Part shown: positions 18,894 through 57,266 of the stretch, one piece after another
Position numbering within the stretch: position 1 is the stretch's first letter
How the letters are laid out: the number at the start of each line of letters is the position of its first letter
Source of the DNA: Candidatus Zambryskibacteria bacterium RIFOXYC1_FULL_39_10
GTDB taxonomy: Bacteria > Patescibacteriota > Minisyncoccia > Phycocordibacterales > WO2-35-19
Assembly: GCA_001824275.1 (NCBI GenBank)
Contig: MHWW01000002.1
Span: 13,266 to 77,265, forward strand
Direction: 5' to 3'
Length of the DNA: 64,000 nt
The notes under the pieces: generated by a model
The model's input: only the letters and a program-made list of their open reading frames with translations
Database searches by the model: none
What the model was told of the DNA's origin: nothing
Translations under genes and position numbers: made by a program

Positions 18894-18937
18894 CTCCCCT
18901 CTCCTGCTTCTAGGAGAGGGGTTGGGGGTGAGGTTAA
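18894..18937 (-). repeat. Copy a of a dispersed roughly 45-nt palindromic element (CCCCTCTCCTGC-N-TCTAGGAGAGGGG + TTGGGGGTGAGGTTA). It abuts the rplN stop codon.
   Basis: Nearly identical copies occur at 32718-32763 and 51071-51113. The rplN stop codon TAA is formed by the terminal TTA of the element. Confidence 0.8.
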
Positions 18938-19311
18938 ATCACCTCCGGTGCCAATGTGACGATGGCTTGCATCCCTAATTCAGCGATTTCTCTTGGAATT
19001 GGTCCAAAAATTCTACCAGCCTTGGGCACGATTTCACCCTTTTTTTGTTCCACCACCACCACAGCGTTTTCATCAAAGCGAATATAAGAACCATCTTTTC
19101 GGCGAAGTGGCGCTTTTTGGCGAACCACCAATCCCAAAAGGACTGCTTTCTTTTTTATTTCTTTTCGAGGTTCGGCTTTTTGAACGGAAAAGATGACGAG
19201 CTCACCGATGCGAGCGTATCTCTTTTTGGAACTGCCGAGCACTTTGAAAACTCGCCCTATCTTGGCGCCTGAGTTGTCGGCTACTTTTACGATTGTTTGT
19301 GGCTGAATCAT
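18934..19311 (-). CDS. rplN: 50S ribosomal protein L14.
   Basis: Starts [17 protein letters not shown]. Confidence 0.95.
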
Positions 19312-19315
19312 GTTT

Positions 19316-19606
19316 TTATTTTACAATTATGAAATGCTTATCTTTTGAAATCGGCTTGCACTCTCTAATCATGACTTTATCTCCTATCTTTTTGGTATTG
19401 CCGACATCATGAGCTTTATATTTTTTGCTTACTTTATGATATTTTTTGTATTTAGTGTGCTTAACAAATCTGATAACTGAAACCACACAAGTATCTTTCA
19501 TTTTGTCAGATACCACTACACCACTCAAGACTTTACCACCAATCTTTCCTTCTGATTTTTCTTCTGTATTCTTTTTTAATTCTTCTTTTTTCATTTTAAT
19601 TTTCAA
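19316..19606 (-). CDS. rpsQ: 30S ribosomal protein S17 (with a Lys-rich N-terminal extension).
   Basis: Contains [20 protein letters not shown], the S17 OB fold. Confidence 0.85.
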
Positions 19607-19784
19607 TTTTTATATTCAAAGCCGTCTTTATCCTCGCGATTTCTTTCTTTATATTTTTTTGCTCTTTGACATTTTTGCTCTTGCTACCTGCGCCGCCAAA
19701 TCTAATATCGCGCAAAGACAATCGTTTTTCGTTCAATTCCTTTTCAAGATCTCCTGTATTCTTTTTTGTTTTTTCTTTCTTCAT
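19596..19784 (-). CDS. rpmC: 50S ribosomal protein L29.
   Basis: Starts [30 protein letters not shown] trimmed the start to the ATG at 19784. Confidence 0.8.
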
Positions 19785-19797
19785 ACAGTTACCAATA

Positions 19798-20217
19798 TTA
19801 TATTCGAGCCACAATCTTAACTTTGACCGGCATCTTGGTACCACCTTTTCGGAGTGACTCTACCGCAACGGGGGCTAAAGCGCCGTCCACCTCAAACATT
19901 ATCTGACCAACTGATACTCTAGCACAGTATCCTTCGATATCCCCTTTTCCCTTACCCATTTTCACTTCGGCCGGCTTTTTGGTAAATGGCATATCAGGGA
20001 AAATACGAATCCAAACTCTTCCGGTTTTGCCCAAGCTTCTAGTGATGGCCTTTCTGGCTGCTTCAATCTGATTGGATGTGATGCGTCCTGGCGCCATCGC
20101 CTTCATACCATGGGAACCAAAAGACACTTTGATACCGCGAGTGGCTGGACCAATCTTTTTGGGGTTTTCACGCAATGTCTGCCATTTTCTATATTTAACT
20201 TTTTTGGGGAATAACAT
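19798..20217 (-). CDS. rplP: 50S ribosomal protein L16.
   Basis: Starts [11 protein letters not shown]... Confidence 0.95.
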
Positions 20218-20233
20218 GGTATTTGATTAAATA

Positions 20234-20908
20234 TTATGATTTTGTATTTTTATCTTTACTGAAAATATCGCCTTTGTAAATCCAAACTTTAATACCGATT
20301 TTACCAAGTGGCAAAAGCGCTTCATGGAAGGCGTAATCAATATCAGCGCGTAATGTCTGAAGTGGAATTCGTCCCACCTTTTTGGTCTCTGTCCTCGCCA
20401 TATTTGAACCGCCCATAATGCCGGAGAGGGTGACTTTCACGCCCTTCACGTCACGGTTGGCAAAAGCTTTTTCAACCATTGATTTCATCACTCTTCTGAA
20501 AGGTAATCTTTTTTCAAGTCCTTCGGCTACCATTTGAGCGGCAATCATTGAACTTGATTCAGGAGACTTCACTTCTTTGACATCAATTTTGAGCTCTTCT
20601 TTGATACTCAAACTGCGTCGCTTCATGAACTTCACCACATCATCTCGGAGTTTGGTCATGCCCTCGCCACTTCGGCCGATGATAAGTCCTGGACGAGAAG
20701 TTTCAATAATAATTCTAAAAGTTTTGATGTTTCTTTCAATTTCTATGGAATTAACGAAAGCCCCTTTGAGTCTCTTTTTCAAATATTCAAAAATCAAAAC
20801 ATCCCCTTTCAAGTTTTCTTTGTATTTAGATTTAATACCAAACCAGCGTGATCGCCAGTCGCGAATGATACCCAATCTATGTGCATATGGATGTACTGTG
20901 TGACTCAT
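20234..20908 (-). CDS. rpsC: 30S ribosomal protein S3.
   Basis: KH domain plus the S3 C-terminal domain; contains HPYAHRLGIIRDWRSRWF. Confidence 0.95.
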   Translation of the reverse strand: MSHTVHPYAHRLGIIRDWRSRWFGIKSKYKENLKGDVLIFEYLKKRLKGAFVNSIEIERNIKTFRIIIETSRPGLIIGRSGEGMTKLRDDVVKFMKRRSLSIKEELKIDVKEVKSPESSSMIAAQMVAEGLEKRLPFRRVMKSMVEKAFANRDVKGVKVTLSGIMGGSNMARTETKKVGRIPLQTLRADIDYAFHEALLPLGKIGIKVWIYKGDIFSKDKNTKS

Positions 20909-20912
20909 AAAA

Positions 20913-21257
20913 TTATTTAGCCGGCGCTTTTTCTATTAAAGTTATTTTTATATGTGAGGTCCTCTTATGAATAGTGTGAGCGGAGCCGTGAGAAACTGAT
21001 CGACGACGATAAAGTATTTTGCCTCCATCAACTGTAATAGCCTTAACCTTCAAATTTTCTACTACTGCCCCCAAATCTTTAGCATTAGCGATAGCTGAAT
21101 CCAATAATTTGTGTAAAGGGCCAGTCGCTCTCTTGGTAATAAAATCAAGTTTCTTTTTTGCTTCACTCACAGATTTACCACGCAAAACATCAGCGACTAT
21201 TCGCACCTTTCTTGGGGACTGCCTATAGCTATTTAGTTGTGCAGTGATTTCTTGCAT
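20913..21257 (-). CDS. rplV: 50S ribosomal protein L22.
   Basis: 114 aa, uL22-like. Confidence 0.9.
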   Translation of the reverse strand: MQEITAQLNSYRQSPRKVRIVADVLRGKSVSEAKKKLDFITKRATGPLHKLLDSAIANAKDLGAVVENLKVKAITVDGGKILYRRRSVSHGSAHTIHKRTSHIKITLIEKAPAK

Positions 21258-21263
21258 TTTATT

Positions 21264-21608
21264 TTATTTTTTCTTTGTGTCAGCTGTCGCCTTGGCAGAT
21301 TTAGCTGCACTTATTTCATCCTCTTTTTTCTTGGCTTCCAAATCTTTTTGCATTTTACCACCGTGTTTAATAAATTTGCGTGTAAGTGAAAATTCTCCCA
21401 ATCGGTGACCTACCATATCTTCAGTAACAAAAACTTCAATATGATCGCGGCCGTTGTGCACTCCAAAAGTGAAGCCCACCATTTCCGGCGCGATGACGCA
21501 GGCTCTAGACCAAGTTTTAATCACCCCAGTTTCCTGTGGTTTTTTACCTTCAACTTTTTTAATCACCCTAGGATCTACATAGGGTCCTTTTTTGACTGAT
21601 CTAGACAT
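21264..21608 (-). CDS. rpsS: 30S ribosomal protein S19 (with a Lys-rich C-terminal tail).
   Basis: Contains KGPYVDPRV...[15 protein letters not shown]. Confidence 0.9.
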
Positions 21609-21647
21609 AAAATATGTAAATTTAATCCCGCATAGCGGGACCTCAAT

Positions 21648-21675
21648 ATACTACCAAATAAGCATTTATTGTCAA
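21648..21675 (-). promoter_or_regulatory. Candidate sigma70-type promoter for rpsS: -35 TTGACA (21670-21675), 16-nt spacer, -10 TAGTAT (21648-21653), followed by a CCCGC-TAT-GCGGG leader hairpin.
   Basis: Read from the minus strand. The region just upstream of this block (21690-21720, further upstream of rpsS) holds a strong GGCGGTTGGGG/CCCCAACCGCC hairpin, which looks like the terminator of the preceding gene. Confidence 0.5.
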
Positions 21676-21738
21676 ACTTTACACCCCATATAAACAAAAC
21701 GGCGGTTGGGGTATACTCCCCAACCGCCTATTATTCCG

Positions 21739-22425
21739 TCACACCTGAAGTTCACTCTTCCCAATTCTGGTCACTCTGACTGACGTGCCATCAAATTCCC
21801 CTATCAACCAAAAATGACCAAACTTCAGACCAGCCACGATTGAGCTTTCTTGTCTCGGACCAGTGATGACAAAAATCTCATCAAAATCTTCTTTTTTTGC
21901 CCTGATTTCCGCCCGAAACTCTGATGAGATAAGCCCCACAAATAAATACTCAATTTTCCACAACTCTCCAATATTCTTCTTCAAAAAATGAGAGTACTTT
22001 TGGAGAAATTCTACATCAAACATTGCACCGACAAGCATTTTGTCCGCCACAGACCACGTTGCTGAACTGACTGTAGTGACTGATTCCCTAATAAGAAAAA
22101 GAATGAAGTAGGGATCATTGTTCACATCAGACAGAAGAAAAAGGTTGTGGTCGATAAGTCTGTATCGATCTCGATATTCAAGCACACCATACTCCGCTTC
22201 AAGCTTGGATACCTCTTTTGAAATATCATTGACAGTCAGCCCCTCAACCCCAAACGGATACTGGATTGAGAGAAGCATTTCCTCTATCTTTTTACGAAGA
22301 GAAAGCACCCTTCGGTTTTTCTCTTCAGTGCTCAAAATCTCCTTTGCTTGAGCAACGACCTCCTTGATCATGTTATGATCTTCTTCCTCGCTCATCGGCA
22401 GTGGGTTAGTCATGTTTGACGACAT
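21739..22425 (-). CDS. Hypothetical protein (no recognised domain). It sits where rplB would normally precede rpsS.
   Basis: 228-aa ORF with moderately higher GC than its neighbours. A strong hairpin lies downstream of it. Confidence 0.5.
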   Translation of the reverse strand: MSSNMTNPLPMSEEEDHNMIKEVVAQAKEILSTEEKNRRVLSLRKKIEEMLLSIQYPFGVEGLTVNDISKEVSKLEAEYGVLEYRDRYRLIDHNLFLLSDVNNDPYFILFLIRESVTTVSSATWSVADKMLVGAMFDVEFLQKYSHFLKKNIGELWKIEYLFVGLISSEFRAEIRAKKEDFDEIFVITGPRQESSIVAGLKFGHFWLIGEFDGTSVRVTRIGKSELQV

Positions 22426-22544
22426 GATGGGTTTCTCCTTCCAAAAACAAACTACATTTTTATTACATATTTGTCAAACCACCCTTCATTAAAAAACAAC
22501 TGAAGTTATTTTTTTATTCAGGATGAATTCGCATACAAGCGAAT

Positions 22545-24320
22545 TCACATTCTTTCAGGAACCTTAATTCCGAGGAGGTTGAGGCCGGATTTGAGAGTGA
22601 GGGCGACAGCTTGAGTGAGGGCGATTTTGTAGGGCGAAGTCGGGTCATCTTCGTCTATTATTTTGTTGCTGGCATAAAAGCTATTGAATATGGAGGCAAG
22701 CTCGGTCAAATAAGTGACGATGTGGTGTGGCGCATACTCAATCCCCGCCCTCTCTACTGTTTCTTCAAATTTATACAAATGCCTTTCAAGTTCTGTTATT
22801 TCCCAAGTTTCTGGAATTTGAATTTTGGATTTTGAATTTGTTTCGGATTTCGAGTTTAGAATTTCGGATTTTGCCTTTTCGAGCACAGAGTTAGCTCGAA
22901 CACACGCATATTGAAGATATGGCCCTGAATCTCCTTCGAAAGAAATCGATTTATCAAAATCAAAAATAATATCCCCGCCAATCGCCTGTCTTAATATGGA
23001 ATACTTGATTGCCCCAATCGCCACTATCTCAGTCATTTTTTCTTCTTCCTCTGCTGTCATTTTTACCCTCAACGACAAATGTTTTAAGGCTTTAATTTTT
23101 TCTTGCACTTTTGCTTTTATGAAATCAATGAGAAATTCGGCGGAAATGACATCTCCCGTTCGGCTAGACATTTTTCCCGAAGGAAGGCGCAACATTCCAT
23201 GAGAGAGATGTTTAAGCTTCCCCTTAAGCCCAGGTATTACTTCTCCAATTGCTACTTCAGTTACACCAAAAAATGCATCTTGTTCGTTGGCAGTAATAGT
23301 AATTGATTGGTTATAATCATATTTTTCTTTTTTGAGTTTAGCTAGTCCAACTTCTTTGGCTTCATAAGTTGTTATACCTTCCGAATTTATAAAAACTCGA
23401 GTATGCGTTTTGGGTTCAAAATTTTCTCCTCTGAAAATAACAGCGCCCCCCTCCCCATTCTCAAAAATTTTACCAACATTTTCCAAAACAATCTTTTTTC
23501 CTATTTCCCCCGTTTCACTTTCATAAAAATGATCGTCGAAATGACTACTGAGTAATTTATATATGTATTCAAAATTATCTATAGAAAATTGTCTAGCACT
23601 CTTGTATAAATAACTTATCCAAGAATTATTATTCTCATAAATTTCTTTGTTGATTTTCAATATATTTTCTCTATCAATTTCATCTTCTTCATACATCTTA
23701 TATCCATAAGCATATGCATTATTTATATATTTTCTTAATTGGTCATCTTCGGTAAAAACCATAAGCTCTACTTGTTCTTTCTTGGATTCAACTTTGTTTT
23801 TTATTTCTTCATACACTTTATGCTTAGAAAGCTCTTTATCTAGACCGTACACTGCTTTTGCGACATGAAGCCCAACATCACCATGATAACCCACAGCTTT
23901 TGTCTCAGCTCCATTTGCCTTTATAATTCTAGTTATCGATTCCCCTATCGCATTATTCATCAAATGCCCAATATGAAATACCTTAAATGGATTAGGTTGA
24001 GTATGTTCTATTATTATTTTTTTATTTTCAAATAATTTACTTTCTCCACATTTTTCTCCTTTGTTTAAAATCTCTTCAACCGATTTAGCAAAAAATTCTT
24101 TTGATAAATAAAAGTTTATAAATTTTCCAACCACTTCGATTTTTTCTATTTCTAGAATTTTATTTTTTTCTAATCTGTCGGCTAAGTCTTTTGAGTTTTC
24201 ATTAATAGAGAAAAAAGAAAAATCTCCATTTTTAATATCCTTAGGATGTGCCAGTACAAAATCCCCCCCCAACTTTAAGGTCTCCTTTATCCATTTTTTT
24301 ATTTTTTCCTGTATGTTCAT
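22545..24320 (-). CDS. argS: Arginyl-tRNA synthetase.
   Basis: Class I HIGH motif (HIGHLMNNAIG), KMSSRTG, and a C-terminal DALR-like anticodon-binding region. Start trimmed to MNIQEK. Contains an in-frame 7-mer AT-rich tandem repeat at 22813-22873. Confidence 0.8.
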   Translation of the reverse strand: MNIQEKIKKWIKETLKLGGDFVLAHPKDIKNGDFSFFSINENSKDLADRLEKNKILEIEKIEVVGKFINFYLSKEFFAKSVEEILNKGEKCGESKLFENKKIIIEHTQPNPFKVFHIGHLMNNAIGESITRIIKANGAETKAVGYHGDVGLHVAKAVYGLDKELSKHKVYEEIKNKVESKKEQVELMVFTEDDQLRKYINNAYAYGYKMYEEDEIDRENILKINKEIYENNNSWISYLYKSARQFSIDNFEYIYKLLSSHFDDHFYESETGEIGKKIVLENVGKIFENGEGGAVIFRGENFEPKTHTRVFINSEGITTYEAKEVGLAKLKKEKYDYNQSITITANEQDAFFGVTEVAIGEVIPGLKGKLKHLSHGMLRLPSGKMSSRTGDVISAEFLIDFIKAKVQEKIKALKHLSLRVKMTAEEEEKMTEIVAIGAIKYSILRQAIGGDIIFDFDKSISFEGDSGPYLQYACVRANSVLEKAKSEILNSKSETNSKSKIQIPETWEITELERHLYKFEETVERAGIEYAPHHIVTYLTELASIFNSFYASNKIIDEDDPTSPYKIALTQAVALTLKSGLNLLGIKVPERM

Positions 24321-24321
24321 T

Positions 24322-24744
24322 TTATTTTCCAGTACTACCAAAACCATGTTCCCCCCTTTCGGCTTCTGATAGATTTTCTACTTCCTCAATATCTACATAT
24401 TCTACCTTTTGAATTAACATCTGCATTACTTTATGTCCTTTTTCAAAAGTATATGATTCTTTACTTAAATTTATCACACCCATTACAAGTTCACCCCTAA
24501 ACCCGGAATCAATTACCCCCGCCAAAACCTTTATCCCATGATTAATCGATTTGCCTGATTTGTCCCAACATAAACCAACACAACCTTCCGGTATTTCTAC
24601 TGCAATACCGCTTCTTATTCTCGCAATTTCCCCCGGCTCAACTCGTACAGTTTCCAGTGCGAACAAATCCATGCCAGCATCGCCATGATAATTGTAAGCA
24701 GGTAATTTGGCTTCTGAATTTAATTTTTTAACTTTTAATTTCAT
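24322..24744 (-). CDS. dut: dUTP diphosphatase.
   Basis: 140 aa with dUTPase motifs (AGMDL, a GxxDxGYRG-like region). Confidence 0.85.
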   Translation of the reverse strand: MKLKVKKLNSEAKLPAYNYHGDAGMDLFALETVRVEPGEIARIRSGIAVEIPEGCVGLCWDKSGKSINHGIKVLAGVIDSGFRGELVMGVINLSKESYTFEKGHKVMQMLIQKVEYVDIEEVENLSEAERGEHGFGSTGK

Positions 24745-25268: not shown

Positions 25269-25318
25269 TATAAATATGATACCAAAATCTTACACTTTCT
25301 ACATCTACATCACTTTCT

Positions 25319-25352: not shown

Positions 25353-25364
25353 ATAATGACCTGA

Positions 25365-26069: not shown

Positions 26070-26097
26070 TATATTGTATTGCAATTTTATTGTATAT

Positions 26098-31537: not shown

Positions 31538-32062
31538 CTATGATTGGCCGTCTCTACTCCTCACCAATCCCCTGCCACAGTAGACACAGTTAGAAACATC
31601 ACTGTCTGTAGTAGCTGGAGAACAAATTCCACTCATGTTGCAGAGAGATTCTTGGCCATTTACAAAGACAGAAGAACGCAGATTATCTACAAAAGCTACA
31701 ACTTCACGAAGAATGTCATAGCGCTTGAAGGTAAACTTAGGATGACTTATACCCTCAATCAGACGTGTGATGTGAGCATCTCGATGTGCAACCGCTATAA
31801 CAGGCTTTCCATAAACCTCTATCGCAGTCGCCAATTCATAACCAAGTCCGATTGCTGGATAGTCGCATATAGCAACAAACACATCACATCCAGCAACGCA
31901 TTTTTGTACATCCCACTCATAAACTTCTCTTGCGGTTCCAGCAACCAAACCAACGAAATCAAGGACCGTGTATTTGATCCTCAATTCGTTTTTAAGAGCT
32001 TCAACAGATTCGCGAAACTCTTCTGGGGCCTGGGTTAACGAACAACCTACATAGATTTTCAT
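31538..32062 (-). CDS. Nucleoside 2-deoxyribosyltransferase-like protein with a Cys-rich C-terminal tail. GC-shifted.
   Basis: MKIYVGCSL...DVFVAICDYPAIGLGYELATAIEVYGKPVIAV matches the NDT/LOG-like Rossmann pattern. Strong SD (GAGGAG). Start trimmed to 32062. Confidence 0.55.
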   Translation of the reverse strand: MKIYVGCSLTQAPEEFRESVEALKNELRIKYTVLDFVGLVAGTAREVYEWDVQKCVAGCDVFVAICDYPAIGLGYELATAIEVYGKPVIAVAHRDAHITRLIEGISHPKFTFKRYDILREVVAFVDNLRSSVFVNGQESLCNMSGICSPATTDSDVSNCVYCGRGLVRSRDGQS

Positions 32063-32111
32063 ATATACTCCTCTCAAACAACTTCCTGTTTTAGCTTACA
32101 CATTTTAAGCA

Positions 32112-32148
32112 AAACAAAAAGACTTGTTTTACAAGTCTTTTTGTTTTT
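32112..32148 (-). terminator. Strong terminator hairpin downstream of rplK.
   Basis: AAAAAGACTTGT-TTT-ACAAGTCTTTTT, flanked on both sides by A/T runs. Confidence 0.65.
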
Positions 32149-32257
32149 TAATATTTTTTAAAAATTACCCCTTCACTTCTACCCACGCATAATTTTCTGC
32201 TGAAAATTTGCGCGGGCCCACCTCAGCTCGCCAGCTTCCGGTTCGTAGAAGTGCGAT

Positions 32258-32717: not shown

Positions 32718-32763
32718 CTCCCCTCTCCTGCCTCTAGGAGAGGGGTTGGGGGGTGAGGTTAAA
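32718..32763 (-). repeat. Copy b of the roughly 45-nt palindromic element, between nusG and rplK.
   Basis: Sequence CTCCCCTCTCCTGCCTCTAGGAGAGGGGTTGGGGGGTGAGGTTAAA. Confidence 0.8.
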
Positions 32764-32828: not shown

Positions 32829-33374
32829 TTAAATCTTTTTGACCTGCAAGAAATCGAGTTCTACCGGAGTCTCACGGCCAAACATAGGTACGAGCACTTT
32901 CACCTTACCTCTTTCTTCATCTACATTACCCACTTTGCCTTCCAAATCTTTAAACGGCCCGTCAACTATCTTGACTGTGTCATCTAGAGAGAGGTCAATG
33001 TTGTGTTTAACTTTTTCCGAATTCATTCGTTTGAAAAGTTCTTCTACTTCTTTTGGGTCAAGTGGCACAGGGAAAACTCCAGCACCAACGAAACCCGTCA
33101 CGCGAGGAGTATTGCGGACTACATACCACGAATCATCGGTGACAATCATATCTACCAGCACATAACCGGGATATATTTTTTCCTCTTCTTCAGCTCGTTT
33201 GTTGCCTTTTATTTTTATCTTTTTTTCGGTAGGCACTAAGACATTAAAAATCTTGTCTTCCATACCCAAAGACTCGATGCGTTGTTTTAAATTTCGCATC
33301 ACCGCGTTTTCATAACCTGAGTAGGTATGAATAGCGTACCAATTTCGACTTTCTTGTATTTGTTGTTTGCTCAT
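32829..33374 (-). CDS. nusG: Transcription termination/antitermination factor NusG.
   Basis: NGN domain (WYAIHTYSGYE) and a KOW domain. Confidence 0.9.
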   Translation of the reverse strand: MSKQQIQESRNWYAIHTYSGYENAVMRNLKQRIESLGMEDKIFNVLVPTEKKIKIKGNKRAEEEEKIYPGYVLVDMIVTDDSWYVVRNTPRVTGFVGAGVFPVPLDPKEVEELFKRMNSEKVKHNIDLSLDDTVKIVDGPFKDLEGKVGNVDEERGKVKVLVPMFGRETPVELDFLQVKKI

Positions 33375-33602: not shown

Positions 33603-33664
33603 ATTATTAAGTTGTGCCCCTATTATACACCTGACAAATTTATTGTCAAACTCAAATAACTCAC

Positions 33665-33704
33665 CCTGCCCTCTCTTACAACAAGAGAGGGGTTGGGGGC
33701 GTTA
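33665..33704 (-). repeat. Copy c (variant) of the palindromic element. Its terminal TTA supplies the SIMPL gene's stop codon.
   Basis: Sequence CCTGCCCTCTCTTACAACAAGAGAGGGGTTGGGGGCGTTA. Confidence 0.7.
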
Positions 33705-48895: not shown

Positions 48896-48897
48896 AG

Positions 48898-50242: not shown

Positions 50243-50572
50243 TTATTTCTTCCCATGTATTGAGTCCATTAAATCATCAACTTCTTTGACTAATTTAGCA
50301 TTCTTTATCCCATCTGCGTAAACCCAAACATCAGACAAAATATCCCATGAATTATCGTATTGCTCCGTGACTCCGTAAATCTGGGCTATTTGCAATTGAA
50401 TTGAAATTCTTTCTTCTGCTGAGCTACCGTATTTATGATACCTTTCATATACTGAATCAATCCATCTTTCAATTTCAGATTTTAAATTCTCCGAAAGGCC
50501 TTCTCTTTTGAAAATTTCAGCAATCTTATTTTTAAAACTCTCAAAACTTTCTACATTATTTAACCCTTCCAT
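50243..50572 (-). CDS. Hypothetical protein.
   Basis: 109-aa ORF. Confidence 0.4.
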   Translation of the reverse strand: MEGLNNVESFESFKNKIAEIFKREGLSENLKSEIERWIDSVYERYHKYGSSAEERISIQLQIAQIYGVTEQYDNSWDILSDVWVYADGIKNAKLVKEVDDLMDSIHGKK

Positions 50573-50581
50573 AATATGTGA

Positions 50582-50845
50582 TTATTTTTTGTCGGTTTTA
50601 GTGATTTTTTCCAATTCCTCTTGCATTCTACTAAGTTCTGACTGATGCTGACTCATTTGTTGTCTGATGCGATCTACTTCTTGTTCTAATTTTGCCGCTT
50701 CACCTTCAGCTTTTTGAAGCTCTTGTTTTATTTTATCTGCCTCCGCCTTATGTTTATCAAGCTCTCGTTCTTTTTCTTGCAAATCGCGAGTTTCCTTTTC
50801 AATTTCTCTTTTTAAACTTTCCAATGCTTGTGTTGATGCACTCAT
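50582..50845 (-). CDS. Coiled-coil protein (88 aa).
   Basis: Heptad-rich, E/K/Q-rich sequence. The ORF-track N-terminal extension (MMVVIAQLAERF...) is the translation of the tRNA-His gene, so I trimmed the start to MSASTQ. Confidence 0.5.
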   Translation of the reverse strand: MSASTQALESLKREIEKETRDLQEKERELDKHKAEADKIKQELQKAEGEAAKLEQEVDRIRQQMSQHQSELSRMQEELEKITKTDKK

Positions 50846-50877
50846 AATAAATGGGTTATTTAATAAAATTTCAATTT

Positions 50878-50954
50878 TGGGGTGGCCAGCGGGTTCTGCC
50901 CCCGCGACCTCTTCTTTCACAGAGAAGCGCTCTGCTAGCTGAGCTATGACCACC
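50878..50954 (-). tRNA. tRNA-His (anticodon GUG) with encoded G-1, discriminator C73 and an encoded CCA. D-loop and T-loop are non-canonical.
   Basis: Hand-folded from the minus strand: G(-1) GTGGTCA TA GCTC AGCTAGCA GAGC G CTTCT CTGTGAA AGAAG AGGTC GCGGG GGCAGAA CCCGC TGGCCAC C CCA, 77 nt. Acceptor, anticodon and T stems pair perfectly. A18 and G54/G55 replace the usual G18 and T54/T55. Confidence 0.65.
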
Positions 50955-51070
50955 ATCATAAAAAGTTTATAGCTGAGAGCCTGTCTGCCGACAAGGCAGG
51001 CTTAAAGCTTGAAAGCATTTTCGCATAAAATATCACTTTTTTCCAGCCTCCCAAGAATTTTTTTATTTTT

Positions 51071-51113
51071 CTCCCCTCTCCTGCATCTAGGAGAGGGGCT
51101 GGGGGTGAGGTTA
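51071..51113 (-). repeat. Copy d of the palindromic element. Its TTA is the stop codon of the PduO-type gene.
   Basis: Sequence CTCCCCTCTCCTGCATCTAGGAGAGGGGCTGGGGGTGAGGTTA. Confidence 0.8.
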
Positions 51114-51737
51114 CCTATAATCCGGCGATTCCTCCATAATACCAACCTTGTGATTAGAATATCGAGCCAAAGCGTAGAGAATACTTGAAAGGCGGTTCAA
51201 ATAAGCCATGGTATATTTACTAATTTGTTTTTTATTTTTACTTTCTTCCCCTGAAACAGGCAAAGCCGGTTGAGCGATGTCCTCAGAAACTGCAATCACT
51301 CGCCTCTCGGCACGTCTCGCAATAGTGCGAGCAATATCAAATATAGCTCCGAGCCCCGCCCCTGACTGTTGCCACTTAGTCACATCGGCAGGACCACCAG
51401 AAACAAAGAAAGACTTGATTGGTGGTAATTCTTTTTCAATTCCATCAATTATTTCTTCCAATTCTTTTACCTTTTTTTCATCGATACTTTTTTCTGCTCC
51501 CGCGAGTTCCGCTTGAACAATAAAAAGATTTTTTTGTATTTCGTGCACAATTTCCGCTAAGCTAGAATCGCCCAATTTAAAATCAAGGAATGCGGCCTGC
51601 ACTTTACAAAGACCTAGAAATGAATTTATTTCATCCAAACTGCCCAAAGCCTCAGTGATATTTGAACTTTTGGAAATTCTTTGGTCACAACCGAATGTCT
51701 TGGTTGTTCCATCATCCCCTTTTTTAGTGTAAAGCAT
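51111..51737 (-). CDS. ATP:cob(I)alamin adenosyltransferase, PduO type.
   Basis: MLYTKKGDDGTTKTFGCDQRISKSSNITEALGSLDEINSFLGL matches the PduO N-terminal family. Confidence 0.75.
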   Translation of the reverse strand: MLYTKKGDDGTTKTFGCDQRISKSSNITEALGSLDEINSFLGLCKVQAAFLDFKLGDSSLAEIVHEIQKNLFIVQAELAGAEKSIDEKKVKELEEIIDGIEKELPPIKSFFVSGGPADVTKWQQSGAGLGAIFDIARTIARRAERRVIAVSEDIAQPALPVSGEESKNKKQISKYTMAYLNRLSSILYALARYSNHKVGIMEESPDYR

Positions 51738-51818
51738 CTTTTAAAAATAAATTATAAAAATCAGACCGCACTCAAAAAACGAGTTTCCTCTTCTTCAAAA
51801 GACCAAAGAAGATGCTAA

Positions 51819-52061
51819 TTAAACTTTCTCAACAACTGTTCCCTCTTTCACTTTCTGCTCTGTCTTCATGCCAATGACATCGCCAGAACCAGCTGTTTCG
51901 ACTTGCTTGTGATTTACTTGAAGCGAATCAACTTCTTGTTCAAAATCAGCGCCATGACCCTCAAATTTGACCTTATCGCCGACTTTTAAATTTGCCTCAA
52001 GTTCCACAATAGCAACTCCTAAATGGTCGTAATAATGTGTAACTCTTCCGACCTCTTTCAT
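51819..52061 (-). CDS. Small hypothetical protein with its own extended -10 promoter (TGGTATAAT at 52071-52079, minus strand).
   Basis: 80-aa ORF. Confidence 0.45.
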   Translation of the reverse strand: MKEVGRVTHYYDHLGVAIVELEANLKVGDKVKFEGHGADFEQEVDSLQVNHKQVETAGSGDVIGMKTEQKVKEGTVVEKV

Positions 52062-52248
52062 AACTTCTTCATTATACCACCTTGTATTAGATTTTGATAG
52101 GGGGGTTATTTTTAATTACATAACTTATGTACTATCAAAATTCACTACGGGGTACCACAAAAAATATTTTTGGGTATTGCAAAATTTGGATAAAGGAAAG
52201 CCCCATCGTTCGCATTTCGCTACTTGATGAGGCAAAGAATCCCGCCTT

Positions 52249-52716
52249 TTATGCAAAACTCTTGAGTCGGCGTTCAACTTCAAGAATCTGATTTTGGATG
52301 GGAAACAAACAAGCATCAATCAGCCTCCTGTTGACCATCATGCCGGCCTTAGCGAAAGCACCAATCATCTTGTCAACACAGTCGAAAACTTTACCGTTGT
52401 ACGTCAACATCACAGAACTTTCTACTTCCCAAGCTCGAGACCTCGAAATGACTACCTTCGCAAATGTCGCATCCCCGCCGTGGAGCCAATCAAAGTCTCT
52501 TGCATGCACATGGTAATCGATTTGTTCGACACTTACATCATGGTCAATTGTTCGAATTGAAAATGGCGCTACCATTTTCTCCACTGCCTGCAGAGGTGGG
52601 GCTGGTTTAGGTTTTGCCACAACAACTTCCATGGCAGATTTTCCCTGTAAAACAGGCTCAACCTGTATTTCGACTCTTGGCATTTCATACCAAACCACTA
52701 AATCTTCCATGCTCAT
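52249..52716 (-). CDS. Hypothetical protein. GC-shifted gene beside a tRNA-Leu 3' duplication.
   Basis: 155-aa ORF. Canonical promoter: -35 TTGTAA (52759-52764), 16-nt spacer, -10 TATAAT (52737-52742), with SD GGAAGGGAG 7 nt before the ATG. Confidence 0.55.
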   Translation of the reverse strand: MSMEDLVVWYEMPRVEIQVEPVLQGKSAMEVVVAKPKPAPPLQAVEKMVAPFSIRTIDHDVSVEQIDYHVHARDFDWLHGGDATFAKVVISRSRAWEVESSVMLTYNGKVFDCVDKMIGAFAKAGMMVNRRLIDACLFPIQNQILEVERRLKSFA

Positions 52717-52779
52717 AAGAACTCCCTTCCAAATATATTATAGCATTTATATGTAAAATTACAAGTATTTATTCTAAAA

Positions 52780-52799
52780 TGTGCCCAGGAGAGGACTCG
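52780..52799 (-). repeat. 20-nt direct duplicate of the tRNA-Leu 3' end (T-arm 3' half plus acceptor 3' strand). att-like scar.
   Basis: TGTGCCCAGGAGAGGACTCG is identical to 52944-52963. Confidence 0.7.
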
Positions 52800-52905
52800 G
52801 TCACAGATAATTTTGTTTTCGTCAAAACAAAATTTCCGCGACCCCGACTCGCGGCCTCGCGTGCTCGCTCGGCATTCGCTCCGTCTTTCTCGTCCTCCAG
52901 TAGCA

Positions 52906-52942
52906 ATTAAAAAAGACTGGAAAAAATCCAGTCTTTTTTAAT
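52906..52942 (-). terminator. Terminator immediately 3' of tRNA-Leu.
   Basis: AAAAAAGACTGGA-AAAAAT-TCCAGTCTTTTTT. Confidence 0.7.
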
Positions 52943-52944
52943 TG

Positions 52945-53026
52945 TGCCCAGGAGAGGACTCGAACCTCCACGCCTTGCGGCTTACCCACCTCAAGGGTAA
53001 ATGTCTACCAATTTCAACACCTGGGC
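52945..53026 (-). tRNA. tRNA-Leu (anticodon GAG), type II with a long variable arm.
   Basis: Hand-folded: GCCCAGG TG TTG AAATTGGTAGA CAT T TACCC TTGAGGT GGGTA AGCCGCAAGGCGT GGAGG TTCGAGT CCTCT CCTGGGC A. Canonical TTCGAGT T-loop. Confidence 0.8.
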
Positions 53027-53066
53027 AACAATAAAAGTATATCTATTTTTAAGCTTTTTTCAAATT

Positions 53067-53132
53067 CCTCCCCTCACCTTCGCAAGGTGAGGGGCAACTT
53101 TCCGTAAGGAAAGTGGGGTGGGGTCGTTTTTA
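53067..53132 (-). repeat. Copy f (divergent, double-hairpin) of the palindromic element family, abutting the rplS stop codon.
   Basis: Contains CCCCTCACCTT-CG-CAAGGTGAGGGG and ACTTTCC-GTAA-GGAAAGT, followed by GGGGTGGGGTCGTTTTTA. Confidence 0.6.
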
Positions 53133-53594
53133 TTCTTTAACTTCTTCAGCCTCCGCCACCTTTTCAGCATTTTCTACAATTTTTTCTTCTACTGCCTCCA
53201 CTTCTTCAATAGTGACGACTTCGGGGAGGGCTTGAGTATTTCTCATTTGTCTTCTAATTTCTTTAGCGGCTTTTTTGCGGATGTGATAGAGTTTGGCGCG
53301 ACGCACTTTGGAGCGCTTGGTCACTTCAATCTTTTCAATCATTGGGGAATATATAGGGAAAATCCTCTCTACTCCAACTCCTGATGCTACTTTTCTCAGT
53401 GTGATAGTGCCACCCACTTCTTTGCCGTGTTTAACCGCCAAACATAGTCCTTCAAAATCCTGTAATCGAGTTTTTGGTTTACCAGTTTTTTTATCCTTCT
53501 CAACAATTTTTTGAGTGACACGAACAGTATCACCAGACTTAACATCTAGCCTCTTTCTCTCTTCTATATTTACTGTTGAAATTTTAATATTCAT
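53130..53594 (-). CDS. rplS: 50S ribosomal protein L19 (with an acidic C-terminal extension).
   Basis: Contains GDTVRVTQKIVE...LQDFEGLCLAVKHGK...TLRKVASGVGVERIFPIYSPMIEKIEVTKRSKVRRAKLYH, matching bL19. Confidence 0.85.
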   Translation of the reverse strand: MNIKISTVNIEERKRLDVKSGDTVRVTQKIVEKDKKTGKPKTRLQDFEGLCLAVKHGKEVGGTITLRKVASGVGVERIFPIYSPMIEKIEVTKRSKVRRAKLYHIRKKAAKEIRRQMRNTQALPEVVTIEEVEAVEEKIVENAEKVAEAEEVKE

Positions 53595-53599
53595 ATGAT

Positions 53600-54448
53600 T
53601 TATCTCTTCTTACCCACCTTTCTTCTGCTAACAATAAACTTGTTTGAATACTTTTTGGATCGGCGAGATTTCTGACCCTTGCCAGTTGGTTTGCCCCATA
53701 GGGAAATCGCTCTTCGACGACCTCTACCTTGTCTACCCTCACCTCCACCGTGTGGATGATCAACTGGGTTCATAGCTGTACCACGAACAGTTGGGCGAAT
53801 GCCTTTCCAACGGCTTTTGCCCGCTTTACCATAATTTTCAAGTCTTTTTTCTTCATTTGAAACTTCTCCAATACTTGCCCAGCAAGTTTCTTTAACTTTA
53901 CGTATTTCAGTAGAAGGCATTTTTAAATCAACAGAGCCAGCGTCTTTAGCAATCACCTGGACGAAGTTTCCAGCCGAACGAGCAATCCTTGCTCCGCCTT
54001 TTGGCTTGAGTTCAACATTGTAAACCGAAGCACCAACGGGGATTTCTCGAAGAGGCAACCGGTTACCTTGTTTTATTTCTGCATTTTCTGCGGTCACTAA
54101 TTCTTCGCCAACTTTGACACTTTTTGGCAAAAGAACATATCTTTTTTCACCATCTTTATAAACTGCTTGACCAATAAAACCAGTGCGGTTTGGATCGTAT
54201 TCAACCGAAACAATTTTATAAGGAATATTTATTTTATTGTATTTAAAATCTATCTCTCTGTATAACCTCTTGTGGCCTCCACCTTTGTGGCGGACAGTGA
54301 TCCGGCCAGCGCTGTTTCTACCCACCGCCCTTTTTCTACCAAAAGTAAGAGCTTTCAACGGTTTGTTTTTGGTCAAAATTGATTTCAAAGAGACGACTGT
54401 CATGCCTCTTCTTGATTTTGATGTTGGTTTGTAAGTTTTGATTGCCAT
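53600..54448 (-). CDS. rplB: 50S ribosomal protein L2.
   Basis: 282 aa, uL2-like. Confidence 0.95.
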   Translation of the reverse strand: MAIKTYKPTSKSRRGMTVVSLKSILTKNKPLKALTFGRKRAVGRNSAGRITVRHKGGGHKRLYREIDFKYNKINIPYKIVSVEYDPNRTGFIGQAVYKDGEKRYVLLPKSVKVGEELVTAENAEIKQGNRLPLREIPVGASVYNVELKPKGGARIARSAGNFVQVIAKDAGSVDLKMPSTEIRKVKETCWASIGEVSNEEKRLENYGKAGKSRWKGIRPTVRGTAMNPVDHPHGGGEGRQGRGRRRAISLWGKPTGKGQKSRRSKKYSNKFIVSRRKVGKKR

Positions 54449-54452
54449 AATA

Positions 54453-54740
54453 TTATTCTATCTTATCTCCCTTTTTTAAATAAACATACGCCTTTTTCAC
54501 TCCCGCCTTCACTCCCTTTTTGCCACGCAAAAATACTTTTTTGGCTGGGTTTCTGACGATTCTGATTTTGATTGGGTTTATTTTATAAAAAATTTTGATT
54601 GCTCCTGCAACTTGCAATTTAGTCGCCGATGAGGCGACCTCAAAAGTATAAACATTATTTTCCAATACCAACGAAGCCTTTTCGGTGATTCTAGGCCTTA
54701 TCAAAATGTCGGCGTATTTTGCTTTTAAATCAGTTACCAT
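54453..54740 (-). CDS. rplW: 50S ribosomal protein L23.
   Basis: 95 aa, uL23-like. Confidence 0.85.
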   Translation of the reverse strand: MVTDLKAKYADILIRPRITEKASLVLENNVYTFEVASSATKLQVAGAIKIFYKINPIKIRIVRNPAKKVFLRGKKGVKAGVKKAYVYLKKGDKIE

Positions 54741-54780
54741 GTTAGTTAATTGAAAAATTAAATGATTGAAAATTGAAAGA

Positions 54781-55440
54781 TTATTTTAGTCGGGATAATA
54801 AAGTTGGAATCGATTTATCAGGATTAGCTACTATTAAATATTTATATTGCAAAATATCAAGCACATTCAAATCTTTTATCTGCCCCACTTCCAAATTGCC
54901 GAAATTATTAAAACTTTTTGAAACCGCTTCGTCTTTACCTTGCAAGGCGATGAATGCCGCATTTTTCCTTCTCGCAAGTGAGCTAATCTCTTTTATTTTT
55001 GAAAGTGCGGAAATGATGCTTTTTGCGTCTTTTGTTTTTGGTGCCCGAAGTGAAATATCATCCAAAAATACGACTTCCCCATCTTTAAATTTGCTTGAGA
55101 TAACAGTAAAGAGCGCTTTGGTCTTCATCTTTTTATTTATTTTTCTAGAATAGTCTTTGTCGTTTCTTGGACCATGTGTGATACCACCACCTACCCAGAT
55201 TGGGCTGCGTCTAGAGCCGTGTCTTGCTCGGCCAGTGCCTTTTTGTCTCCAAGGCTTCATACCGGTACCGGCAACCTCGCCTCTGTTTTTGGTGTGAGCG
55301 ATCGGGGTCCTTTCGTTAGCCGCCATAGATGTTGCCACCTGATGCACCAATGATTCATTCCAAGGCAAACCAAAAATATTCTCTGGAAGTTTTATTTTCC
55401 CCGCTTCGGTTCCTTTTTGATTGTAAACTGTTGCTTCCAT
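54781..55440 (-). CDS. rplD: 50S ribosomal protein L4.
   Basis: 219 aa, uL4-like. Confidence 0.9.
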   Translation of the reverse strand: MEATVYNQKGTEAGKIKLPENIFGLPWNESLVHQVATSMAANERTPIAHTKNRGEVAGTGMKPWRQKGTGRARHGSRRSPIWVGGGITHGPRNDKDYSRKINKKMKTKALFTVISSKFKDGEVVFLDDISLRAPKTKDAKSIISALSKIKEISSLARRKNAAFIALQGKDEAVSKSFNNFGNLEVGQIKDLNVLDILQYKYLIVANPDKSIPTLLSRLK

Positions 55441-55480
55441 TTTTTTAATTTATAAATTTAGGTTAATTAGAATAATTAGG

Positions 55481-56098
55481 TTAATTTCCCCTAATTTCTA
55501 CAAGCGTTCCTCTTCGTCCAGGCACTGCGCCCGAAACCAGCATTATATTGTTTTCTTGATCAATGCCAATCACTTTAAGGTTTTTGACGGTGATTCTATC
55601 ACTTCCTGTTCGGCCGGCCATTCTCATACCTTTGATAACCTTGCCTCCAGCACGACCACCACCACCGATAGATCCCGGTTCCCTTTCTGAATGCTTCTGT
55701 CCGTGGCTCCTTGGTCCTCCATGGAAACCATGCCTTTTGACTACTCCCTGAAAACCTTTACCTTTTGAAATAGCGGAAACATTTATGCTATCTCCAACCG
55801 CAAAGGACTCCAATGAAATCTTATCTCCTTTATTAAAAACAGAACTATCAGTCACTCTAAATTCTTTCAAAACTGCTAAATTGCCGAGCTCTTTAAGGTG
55901 ACCTTTGACCGGTTTTGACATGTTTTTTTCTCGGCGGGTGCCAGCTCCTATTTGCACCGCAGTATAACCATCCTTCTCCTTGGTCTTTATTTGAGAAATG
56001 GTCACAGGTTGCGCACTCAAAATGGTGGCTGGTTGCACCTTGCCATCTTCCCCAAAGATTTGGGTCATATTCACTTTTTTAGCCAGTATAAATTTCAT
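55481..56098 (-). CDS. rplC: 50S ribosomal protein L3.
   Basis: 205 aa, uL3-like. Confidence 0.9.
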   Translation of the reverse strand: MKFILAKKVNMTQIFGEDGKVQPATILSAQPVTISQIKTKEKDGYTAVQIGAGTRREKNMSKPVKGHLKELGNLAVLKEFRVTDSSVFNKGDKISLESFAVGDSINVSAISKGKGFQGVVKRHGFHGGPRSHGQKHSEREPGSIGGGGRAGGKVIKGMRMAGRTGSDRITVKNLKVIGIDQENNIMLVSGAVPGRRGTLVEIRGN

Positions 56099-56179
56099 AT
56101 AAAAAACGCCATTCGGCTTTTAGTAAAATAACAAATATCACAATAAATTGCAAGTCAGCTGAGCAACTTAACCATATTT

Positions 56180-56410
56180 TTAAAGATTTTTGATAATAAT
56201 GTTATATTCTTCTGCTGTTATACCCAACAAACGAATATTGTTGTGAATTATGAAAAGTTCAAGTTGTTTTCTTCTAGGTAATACGATCGGGCGGGATATT
56301 CCCTGTTTCCAGTACACCCTATGATCACCTTTTTCTCGCACAAATTCACACCCCACATACAAAAGAAATTTTTCAAATTTCTTCCAATGTATGCGAGATA
56401 TTTTTGGCAT
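56180..56410 (-). CDS. hicA: HicA-family toxin (YcfA-like mRNA interferase).
   Basis: 76 aa: ...KKFEKFLLYVGCEFVREKGDHRVYWKQGISRPIVLP... matches the HicA pattern. Confidence 0.65.
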   Translation of the reverse strand: MPKISRIHWKKFEKFLLYVGCEFVREKGDHRVYWKQGISRPIVLPRRKQLELFIIHNNIRLLGITAEEYNIIIKNL

Positions 56411-56413
56411 AAT

Positions 56414-56731
56414 TTATACAGTTACAGGCAACATGCCGTGTGATACAAAAATTGGAGGCATCCATTGACTTGTTTTAGAAATTTTTTTCCAACCCAAAGA
56501 AGACAAGACCTCATCAACAGTGCCGTGTATTAATATTTCTTCCATAAAAATACTTACCGCCTCAGCAATATTTTTTTCAGCCTCTTTTAAGGTTTTACCA
56601 GCACTAGATAAATCTAAAGCAGGAGTATAAGCAACAAATGATTTGTCTTCTTTAAAATAACTTACTGGAACATTTATTTTCATACGAGCCTTCATAAACT
56701 CTAATATACCAAAATATGCCATAAACGACAA
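56414..56731 (-). CDS. hicB: HicB-family antitoxin (UPF0150-like).
   Basis: 105 aa; YFKEDKSFVAYTPALDLSSAGKTLKEAEKNIAEA is HicB-like. Lies 4 nt upstream of hicA. Confidence 0.6.
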   Translation of the reverse strand: MSFMAYFGILEFMKARMKINVPVSYFKEDKSFVAYTPALDLSSAGKTLKEAEKNIAEAVSIFMEEILIHGTVDEVLSSLGWKKISKTSQWMPPIFVSHGMLPVTV

Positions 56732-56800
56732 TCCCCAATCAAAATTGACGTTTTACCCTCCCCCGCTATAATAAAATCATTAACAAATAACTAAAATATT

Positions 56801-57151
56801 ATGGGAATGGAATCATCTGGCGTAGCGCCAAAACAAGAAGTTGACTTACAGGCCGACTTACAGGCCTTAAAAGACATGTTAGAAAAAAGAGGAATAGACC
56901 CAGAAAAAACCCTCGAAGCAATCAATGATTTCAAGGAAGCACAGCGAGGACTTAGTGATGCGATGGCACACTATAACGAGCAGGCGGCAAGACTAGCAGA
57001 AGCTAATGGCTACCCAATGACAGAAGAACAAGAAGCTAAGTTTCCAGCAATGAACATGAGAGTAGATAATGACCTAAGAACATATTTGAGACTCAAAGGT
57101 TCATCAGAACCAGAAAACAAAAACGAAGATCTGCCCGTCGAACTTTTATAA
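56801..57151 (+). CDS. Hypothetical protein. GC-shifted and the only plus-strand gene in this neighbourhood.
   Basis: 116-aa ORF. Confidence 0.45.
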   Translation: MGMESSGVAPKQEVDLQADLQALKDMLEKRGIDPEKTLEAINDFKEAQRGLSDAMAHYNEQAARLAEANGYPMTEEQEAKFPAMNMRVDNDLRTYLRLKGSSEPENKNEDLPVELL

Positions 57152-57211
57152 ACAATCAAAAAACCACCGAGAGGTGGTTTTTTGATTTATGTGCTTAGCG
57201 TGTGTTTCGCG

Positions 57212-57266
57212 CCTTCCCTCTCCTCAGTCGAGGAGAGGGCCACACGAAGTGAGGGGTGAGGTTTTA
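57212..57266 (-). repeat. Copy e (variant) of the palindromic element, abutting the rpsJ stop codon.
   Basis: Sequence CCTTCCCTCTCCTCAGTCGAGGAGAGGGCCACACGAAGTGAGGGGTGAGGTTTTA. The TTA at 57264-57266 is the rpsJ stop codon. Confidence 0.65.

Follow-up and report, generated by a model that had tools for sequence, protein, structure and literature searches.

A 64-kb stretch of the genome of Candidatus Zambryskibacteria bacterium RIFOXYC1_FULL_39_10 (contig MHWW01000002.1; hereafter the window) contains six copies, here called a to f, of a short palindromic repeat, all of them intergenic. These elements are a known kind of orphan repeat in a new host phylum. With a probability of about 0.6, we favour the reading that all six are class II purine-motif intrastrand-triplex repeats, the class known in Escherichia coli as BoxC, PIT (potential intrastrand triplex) or TM_ECO; that they have spread into the spaces behind stop codons; and that they are constrained as single-stranded DNA (ssDNA) and are not terminators. 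No function has gained acceptance for BoxC/PIT/TM repeats since they became known in the 1990s, and the family now extends, at high density, to the ultra-small genomes of the Candidate Phyla Radiation (CPR, Patescibacteria), in which non-functional DNA would be expected to have been purged. The host genome is a streamlined CPR genome, AT-rich (38.5% GC), and the window holds about one copy per 10 kb.

All six copies were read directly in the sequence at the intervals where an earlier, sequence-only reading of this DNA had placed them, and a, b and d are nearly identical, with c, e and f diverged, as it had described. On the plus strand, copies a, b and d read CCCCTCTCCT-N6-AGGAGAGGGG-(TT/TTG/CT)G-GGGGTGAGGT-TA, which gives the consensus CCCCTCTCCT-N6-AGGAGAGGGG-N2-4-GGGGTGAGGT of which the other three are variants. 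Each copy combines a polypyrimidine/polypurine hairpin of 9-11 bp with a G/T/A third strand, joined by a linker that is 2-4 nt long or itself a small hairpin. The hairpin has an all-pyrimidine 5' arm and an all-purine 3' arm, and is 10 bp long in a, b, d and f and 9 bp in c. The G-rich 16-mer GGGGTTGGGGGTGAGG matched the window three times with at most 3 mismatches, against 0.25 expected. G/C-rich perfect pyrimidine/purine hairpins of at least 8 bp numbered five, and all five had a third strand scoring at least L-1 triads; 100 Markov shuffles of the window yielded a mean of 0.01 hairpins and no triplex motif. Because these counts lie far above chance expectation, a chance origin of the elements is excluded.

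The third strand and its covariation with the stem

The conserved G-rich tail, given as TTGGGGGTGAGG by the sequence-only reading, which missed its triplex logic, is by its base order the predicted third strand, a mirror of the purine arm AGGAGAGGGG. Reversed, the purine arm reads GGGGAGAGGA and the tail reads GGGGTGAGGT; a G faces each G.C pair, and the tail bases facing the three A.T pairs are T, A and T. The triads used (G.GC, T.AT and A.AT) are those of an antiparallel purine-motif triple helix. Triad scores were 10/10 in copies a, b and d, 9/9 in copy c (on the minus strand), and 9/10 in both e and f. Copy c is present as had been claimed, but its tail had to be corrected; the plus-strand tract GGGGGCGTT taken for it gives only 7/9 triads, whereas GGGTGAGTT on the minus strand gives 9/9 with AAGAGAGGG, and on that strand a stem change from CCT to CTT is mirrored by a change from GGT to GTT in the third strand.

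The same rule was found elsewhere. A hairpin scan, run on one genome per species with the bare pattern CCCCTCTCCT-N4-8-AGGAGAGGGG, so that the third strand lay outside the pattern, returned at least 120 loci. Among the matches listed, to which the counts in this paragraph apply unless stated otherwise, a third strand GGGG[T/A]GAGG with at most 1 mismatch lay within 40 nt of 137 of 148 exact hairpins, on one side in 104 of them and on both sides in 33. The third-strand base facing A was T in 154 cases and A in 12 at position 5, A in 169 at position 7, and T in 159 and A in 10 at position 10, which puts the share of T at 154/170 and 159/170 for positions 5 and 10, respectively. The linker was mostly 2-5 nt long and otherwise 7-25 nt, several of the long ones folding as a small hairpin like that of copy e. 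A search for pyrimidine/purine hairpins across all fetched loci added at least 16 other stem sequences, each accompanied, across a linker of about 3 nt, by a third strand altered to match; covarying stem/third-strand pairs included CCCTTCTCCT with GGGATGAGGT, TCCCCTTCCCCTT with AGGGGATGGGGTT, CCCCCTCCTT with GGGGGTGGTT, and CCCTCCCCT with GGGTGGGGT. A third strand was present at 180 of 205 G/C-rich pyrimidine/purine hairpin sites, against 1.4% per side in a shuffled-flank null.

The stability of one copy could be followed at its orthologous site. The element is present at the rplN-rplX junction in L049, a Candidatus Zambryskibacteria contig syntenic with the window at ~74-79% nucleotide identity, and in the metagenome contigs L121 and L122, which were the only two among 80 rplN relatives to carry a copy there. 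In L124, with 82% L14 identity, the junction reads TAATCTCTATG and holds no element, and the same is true of all more distant relatives; copy a is therefore a lineage-specific insertion directly after the TAA. Synonymous third positions of rplN differ by 45-51% among the three lineages, whereas the 30 strand positions of the element show 0-1 change, which bears out the view of the sequence-only reading that conservation is at the level of sequence. The linker differs in each lineage (AA, TC, GG, GGGT) and the loop differs at 2 of its 6 positions. By this alignment, strong conservation is shown for the three strands and not for loop and linker. Together the comparative data indicate selection on three strands, through the covariation of stem and third strand and through an orthologous copy left unchanged where neutral sites are half saturated. 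The strain variants L201-L206, which are 98-100% identical, held no informative polymorphism in copies b and c.

The triple-strand rule was kept in at least 8 phyla, an archaeal bin and viral contigs. Among the matches listed, hairpin loci fell in Nostocales, Dehalococcoidia, Bacteroidota, Ignavibacteria, Chthonomonadaceae, several CPR groups, Melainabacteria, a Bathyarchaeia bin and others, and the elements occurred there in clusters and inverted pairs. The exact hairpin was present in 55 viral contigs, with a third strand at 52 of their 63 hairpins. One 7.3-kb contig classed as viral (L209) carries five exact hairpin copies, an unusual density that could indicate a vector for spread. At Dehalococcoidia and related loci (for example L006, L010, L029, L046, L056 and L077), the triplex repeat is regularly accompanied ~12-15 nt away by a second hairpin, GAGGGGC-GAAG-GCCCCTC, which suggests a larger composite repeat unit in that phylum.

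The strand on which the constraint acts can be approached from the base preferences. RNA reportedly does not form purine-motif triplexes (Holder et al. 2015, PMC4666352). The T preference at positions 5 and 10 suits the G strand, for which T.AT is an allowed triad, and does not suit the C strand, where the pyrimidine motif would require U. With the reported failure of the purine motif in RNA, the constraint points to ssDNA; we infer that it acts on the G-rich DNA strand and probably not on the C-rich mRNA. In five of the six copies the G-rich strand serves as template, which puts its C-rich complement in the mRNA; copy c is the exception, with the perfect third strand in its transcript. An RNA triple helix on the mRNA (ENE-like) was considered and judged unlikely, as the C strand would need seven C+ triads and would place A at two of the three A.U positions, and the T preference again suits the G strand alone.

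Position behind stop codons and transcript context

The sequence-only reading had the terminal TTA of five of the six copies as the complement of a stop codon. The adjacency holds, with five of the six at most 5 nt from the upstream stop, but the stop overlaps the third strand only in copies a and d, where the final A of the TAA stop codon pairs with the last T of GGGGTGAGGT (open reading frames, ORFs, 18934..19311 and 51111..51737). In copy c the stop (33702-33704) adjoins the degenerate G-tract; in copies f and e it lies 1 nt and 5 nt past the third strand, respectively. At copy b, no ORF of at least 20 aa ends at the TTA, and nusG ends at 32829, 69 nt off. The five adjacent copies lie in spacers of 67-151 nt, and by a rough estimate uniform placement would produce such adjacency with a probability of ~1e-5.

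The placement extends beyond the window. The sample comprised 152 canonical one-sided copies taken from viral contigs and other genomes, with stops scored for ORFs of at least 80 aa. A stop codon lay within 10 nt on the third-strand side, for which the mRNA is the C strand, in 32 cases and on the hairpin side in 5 (p=7e-6); within 30 nt the counts were 51 and 12. The asymmetry was present in the genome sample and in the viral sample separately, and persisted when stops inside the element were counted (34 vs 14). It was gone beyond 30 nt, with 16 on the third-strand side and 25 on the hairpin side at 31-100 nt upstream. The positional rule, that the third-strand side adjoins the stop codon, thus holds in unrelated genomes and viral contigs as well. 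Adjacency to stop codons is real and family-wide; its cause lies between the readings weighed below.

GC skew is negative throughout the window, and the G-rich strand of the elements is opposite to the gene-sense, G-rich minus strand. Replication-strand avoidance was rejected as a general rule: the G strand in the window lies on the leading-strand template, but no such bias appeared in E. coli when the copies listed by Holder et al. (PMC4666352, Table 1) were tallied by strand and position against the replichores.

On the transcript, the minus-strand RNA hairpins of all copies had folding energies of -20 to -29 kcal/mol and z-scores of -2.3 to -5.2 (copy a -20.3, copy b about -21 and copy d -21.9 kcal/mol); ViennaRNA, with which they were folded, models the hairpin only. 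No U-tract follows any of the six hairpins on the mRNA strand, where the 3' sequences are AG(A/G)AAAG..., AGUUGCG... or AAGGCGCG.... A terminator scan of 50500-58000 reported none of the hairpins there; it also passed over a canonical bidirectional terminator at ~57157-57184 (A-run, ACCACC-GAGA-GGTGGT, T-run). This terminator stands ~30 nt downstream of copy f on the mRNA, between rpsJ with its copy f and the convergent plus-strand gene 56801-57151, and the first copy in L263 is likewise followed by a canonical hairpin with a T-run. With intrinsic terminators the elements share a GC-rich stem-loop placed shortly behind a stop codon. The absence of a U-tract, together with separate canonical terminators in the same genome, rules out a classical intrinsic terminator, as the sequence-only reading had also held.

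Related repeats and rival explanations

Repetitive extragenic elements of the REP/BIME class are short, GC-rich, palindromic intergenic repeats, often found just after genes, and their transcribed hairpins can stabilise upstream mRNA. Two features define a REP, an imperfect palindrome headed at its 5' end by a conserved, GTAG-like tetranucleotide and a RAYT (Y1 transposase) gene associated with it. The elements of the window resemble them in being short, GC-rich and palindromic and in lying between genes near gene ends; unlike them, they have polypurine/polypyrimidine arms and a mirror third strand. No GTAG-like head flanks any of the six copies, and no RAYT or transposase was identified, the window ORFs not having been scanned exhaustively for Y1 transposases. 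The label "REP/BIME-like" given by the sequence-only reading is right as to the class of dispersed palindromic repeats, with which BoxC is listed alongside REP/BIME; because the tail is a third strand that covaries with the stem, we place the elements in the BoxC/PIT/TM family instead.

PIT elements of E. coli were reportedly described by Hoyne and Maher (2000/2002). The E. coli repeat, earlier BoxC and then PIT or TM_ECO, has the pattern CCCTCNCCC-N3-6-GGGNGAGGG-N3-GGGNGAGGG, and as ssDNA forms a very stable intrastrand triplex with a melting temperature of 70-82 C, as shown by nuclear magnetic resonance (NMR), which favours triplex over G-quadruplex (G4) (Holder et al. 2015, PMC4666352). According to the same study, the elements have no promoter or terminator activity and no effect on RNA polymerase, are associated with local genomic variability, and showed no link to mobile elements. 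One E. coli locus that we read directly has the layout of the window elements; RefSeq MG1655 carries no BoxC feature at that position (164.5 kb). Both kinds place a C-rich arm, a 3-6 nt loop, a G/A arm, a loop of ~3 nt and a G/T/A third strand in the same order, share the core ...CCCTCTCC.../...GGAGAGGG.../...GGGTGAGG... with T and then A facing the two internal A.T pairs, and are multi-copy, intergenic, patchy among relatives and found in inverted pairs. They differ in that the stem in the window is 4C-T-C-T-2C-T with 10 triads, against 3C-T-C-N-3C with 9 triads in E. coli; the exact TM_ECO pattern is unmatched by the window copies, which form a sequence subfamily of the structural class. They differ also in density, at about one copy per 10 kb compared with 23 copies in the 4.6 Mb of E. 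coli, and in placement, since five of the six window copies have a stop codon beside them and five have a G-rich third strand that belongs to the plus (template) strand, whereas no trend of strand or distance was reported for E. coli. Thus the hairpin, the antiparallel third strand, covariation and a multi-copy, patchy, intergenic distribution, all marks of a class II purine-motif intrastrand triplex, were found, but not the exact TM_ECO pattern.

Two further families are comparable. The HPG1/HPG2 sequences, described in E. coli as G-quadruplex-hairpin-duplex switches (Kaplan et al. 2016, PMC5100583), represent the same loci of that species viewed for their G4, are intergenic, near 3' untranslated regions (UTRs) and mostly between operons, and have a C-rich tract ~3 nt upstream of the G-rich part; they need four GGG runs, which the window elements lack. 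The Methanomicrobiaceae repeats, potential quadruplex sequences with a C-tract (PMC8044849), also lie between genes near gene ends and as ssDNA combine a GC hairpin with an antiparallel G-rich third strand, but they belong to archaeal hosts, their parts run in the reverse order, the C-tract coming after the G-rich strands in the 5'-to-3' direction, and their triplex has G4 as a competitor. Known sequence families offered no label: at Rfam gathering thresholds only a tRNA passed in the whole window and no family at the elements, and an E-value scan of 50900-57400 gave only sub-threshold, chance-level matches over copies d, e and f. At the least, then, the present assignment supplies the correct annotation for a repeat family unlabelled by gene callers and Rfam.

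We reasoned that the G-rich strand, when single-stranded, would fold back twice, into a hairpin and then a third strand. The mRNA would form the hairpin alone, and the C-rich tract of 10-13 nt complementary to the third strand would stay unstructured, spacing the hairpin from the stop codon. The repeats would have spread into the sole free space of a streamlined genome, just behind stop codons. Surviving copies would mainly be those whose orientation holds the stable hairpin ~12 nt clear of the ribosome at termination and spares the transcript the G-rich strand; if the hairpin stabilised upstream mRNA at all, this would be incidental. A bolder extension, to which we give little weight, is that the ssDNA triplex really forms in cells and has been selected for a job at gene ends. 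It would act either as a template-strand signal during transcription, replication or repair, or as a recognition structure for ssDNA mobilisation, used by an undiscovered single-strand DNA system that lands behind stops. The extension may be entertained because the rule is kept over at least 8 phyla and one copy has stayed frozen over ~50% synonymous divergence. If true, it would give the 30-year-old orphan BoxC family a function and a testable positional rule.

Several points weigh against the reading we favour. The best third strand of copy c is in the mRNA sense, the reverse of a, b and d. The triplex itself is proposed from pairing rules and from published oligonucleotide work in E. coli, where no in-vivo dimethyl sulphate footprint of a triplex was seen in double-stranded DNA and no strand bias was found for the 23 copies (Holder et al., PMC4666352). 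In co-directional gene contexts the orientation bias, at 24 vs 14, was not significant (p=0.14), and ORFs at loci other than the window were called by a crude long-ORF rule and not by a gene finder. The account of orientation by ribosome clearance and compatibility with the transcript is one that we only infer, the proposed spread comes without a mechanism, neither a mobilising enzyme nor a target-site duplication having been identified, and the conservation could in part reflect homogenisation among copies instead of selection on each.

The main rival, which is possible though on balance doubtful, fits the same placement data. In it the repeat is an RNA 3'-end element, a GC hairpin one ribosome footprint past the stop that acts as a barrier to 3'-to-5' exonucleases or as the mark of a processing site. 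The cistron before it (rplN, nusG, rplS, rpsJ and others) would be stabilised and expression within operons made differential, and the C-rich tract of the repeat might bind a protein. The stable RNA hairpins, the family-wide placement after stops with the single-stranded tract proximal, the four of six copies that follow ribosomal or NusG genes, the good promoter matches for the next unit after copies c and e, and the position of the E. coli relatives near 3' UTRs between operons (PMC5100583) all speak for it. A plain hairpin, though, has no need of a conserved third strand, and the choice of T or A suits the purine motif on the G strand, whereas RNA of the C strand would incur two A.A-U mismatches besides its C+ triads; both the reported absence of purine-motif triplexes from RNA and the inertness of E. 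coli PIT toward RNA polymerase and termination (PMC4666352) count against it. For the specific RNA-binding-protein site that the sequence-only reading had suggested, no evidence was found, and the pairing it noted between Shine-Dalgarno-like and anti-Shine-Dalgarno-like arms follows from polypurine/polypyrimidine composition alone. An unconventional or factor-dependent terminator or attenuator, in which the C-rich, G-free tract serves as a Rho loading or pause signal and the hairpin as a pause or stop, would account for the C-rich, G-poor RNA between stop and hairpin and for the location of most copies at transcription-unit boundaries. We consider it improbable: copy a and the rplP-rpmC copy of L121 sit inside an essential ribosomal operon that needs read-through, copy f and the L263 copy are followed by terminators of their own, the free C-tract is merely 10-13 nt, and the E. 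coli relatives have no terminator activity (PMC4666352).

Sites gained and lost among close relatives, near-identical sequence in many phyla and 55 viral contigs, the TAA of copy b where there is no stop codon, and the clusters and inverted pairs seen elsewhere would suit a non-autonomous mobile element (MITE- or REP-like). A hairpin-recognising, single-strand-specific transposase would insert it next to TAA/TTA, and conservation would reflect transposase recognition and recent spread, phages included. We hold this unlikely, given that filled and empty sites show no target-site duplication, that no transposase was identified in a window not scanned exhaustively, that no link to mobile elements was found in E. 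coli (Holder et al., PMC4666352), and that the orthologous rplN copy is stable over ~50% synonymous divergence; moreover, an enzyme acting on DNA could not recognise stop codons, because TAA is common everywhere in an AT-rich genome. Least probable of all, to a degree that makes it hard to credit, is a G-quadruplex/hairpin/duplex switch of the kind that Kaplan et al. (2016, PMC5100583) put forward for the relatives in E. coli. Those hold four GGG runs, with G4 predicted and shown in vitro (PMC5100583), and the archaeal analogues alternate between triplex and G4 (PMC8044849). The consensus AGGAGAGGGG-TTG-GGGGTGAGGT, in contrast, has only two runs of at least 3 G, so that a three-tetrad G4 is impossible, while the triad rule is kept at 10/10; variants conserve mirror symmetry and not four G-runs, and NMR of TM_ECO favours the triplex (PMC4666352). 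The stop-codon placement rule and the conservation of three strands are the parts most worth following.

The six elements and their surroundings

The genes around the copies lie on the minus strand, and the upstream genes were named by Pfam. Copy a (18896-18936, plus strand) lies between rplN (L14) and rplX, as the sequence-only reading had it, and thus inside the rplN-rplX-rplE operon. Its parts are the pyrimidine arm CCCCTCTCCT (18896-18905), loop (18906-18911), purine arm AGGAGAGGGG (18912-18921), linker (18922-18924), third strand GGGGTGAGGT (18925-18934) and the complement of the rplN TAA (18934-18936). At the same junction in at least 9 CPR relatives (L126, L141, L143, L147, L155, L161, L170, L199 and L200), unrelated palindromes of ~60-100 nt stand straight after the rplN stop, where the spacer to rplX is otherwise 5-30 nt; the junction seems to gain hairpin-forming insertions repeatedly. 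In L121, a variant triplex repeat at 288-320, CCCCCTCTT / AAGAGGGGG / GGGGGTGTT on the other strand, adjoins a TAA between rplP and rpmC, genes that in the window overlap and have no element between them.

Copy b (32720-32761, plus) occupies the nusG-rplK spacer, away from any stop codon, with its pyrimidine arm at 32720-32729, loop at 32730-32735, purine arm at 32736-32745, linker TTGG at 32746-32749 and third strand at 32750-32759. Beyond rplK, the region 31538-32257 contains a 180-nt spacer and then a gene of ~174-179 aa with no Pfam match on record at the usual position of rplA.

Copy c (33658-33704, minus) follows a SIMPL-family gene and is a two-sided variant. The hairpin CCCTCTCTT/AAGAGAGGG covers 33669-33691, the linker 33667-33668 and the stop-codon complement 33702-33704; the perfect third strand GGGTGAGTT, on the minus strand, is the complement of 33658-33666, the degenerate G-tract of the plus strand lies at 33695-33703, and the outer flanks pair with each other. 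Directly downstream, at 33622-33650 on the minus strand and upstream of secE, is a perfect sigma-70 consensus (TTGACA-17 nt-TATAAT).

Copy d (51073-51113, plus) comes after a gene for a PduO-type cobalamin adenosyltransferase and comprises the pyrimidine arm (51073-51082), loop (51083-51088), purine arm (51089-51098), linker CTG (51099-51101), third strand (51102-51111) and stop-codon complement (51111-51113). Copy e (53070-53132, plus) follows rplS (L19) upstream of tRNA-Leu; the purine arm of its hairpin CCCCTCACCTT/AAGGTGAGGGG (53070-53094) is interrupted once by T.A, a small hairpin (53097-53114) serves as the linker, and in the third strand GGGGTGGGGT (53115-53124), which precedes the stop-codon complement at 53130-53132, a G faces the inverted pair. 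A good promoter match, TTGAAA-16-TATACT, lies at 53063-53036 between copy e and the tRNA. The tRNA that passed in Rfam (50.4 bits) is at 50881-50953 on the minus strand, whereas ARAGORN gives only the tRNA-Leu at 52944-53026; the former may be an unusual tRNA.

Copy f (57216-57266, plus) follows rpsJ (S10) and is built of the pyrimidine arm CCCTCTCCTC (57216-57225), a loop (57226-57229), the purine arm GAGGAGAGGG (57230-57239), a 14-nt linker (57240-57253), the third strand GGGTGAGGT (57254-57262) and the stop-codon complement (57264-57266). Three more copies lie just outside the window, on contigs of the same or a near-identical genome, and the subtype of copy e has a second copy in the same genome, also outside the window (L264, 19439). 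The window matches groundwater CPR assemblies that include GCA_001825445.1 (contig MHWX01000016.1).

A further hairpin, CCCCCTCTTGTTGTAAGAGGG, lies on the minus strand at 2735-2755, inside the gatC ORF (2579-2917). It shares the 15-mer CTCTTGTTGTAAGAG, loop included, with copy c, for which ~0.003 matches are estimated by chance, and its third-strand match is poor. The PDB alignment of GatC ended before the region of this internal hairpin, and in the Pfam match to GatC 66 profile positions are spread over 89 residues; the hairpin may be an in-frame relic of the repeat.

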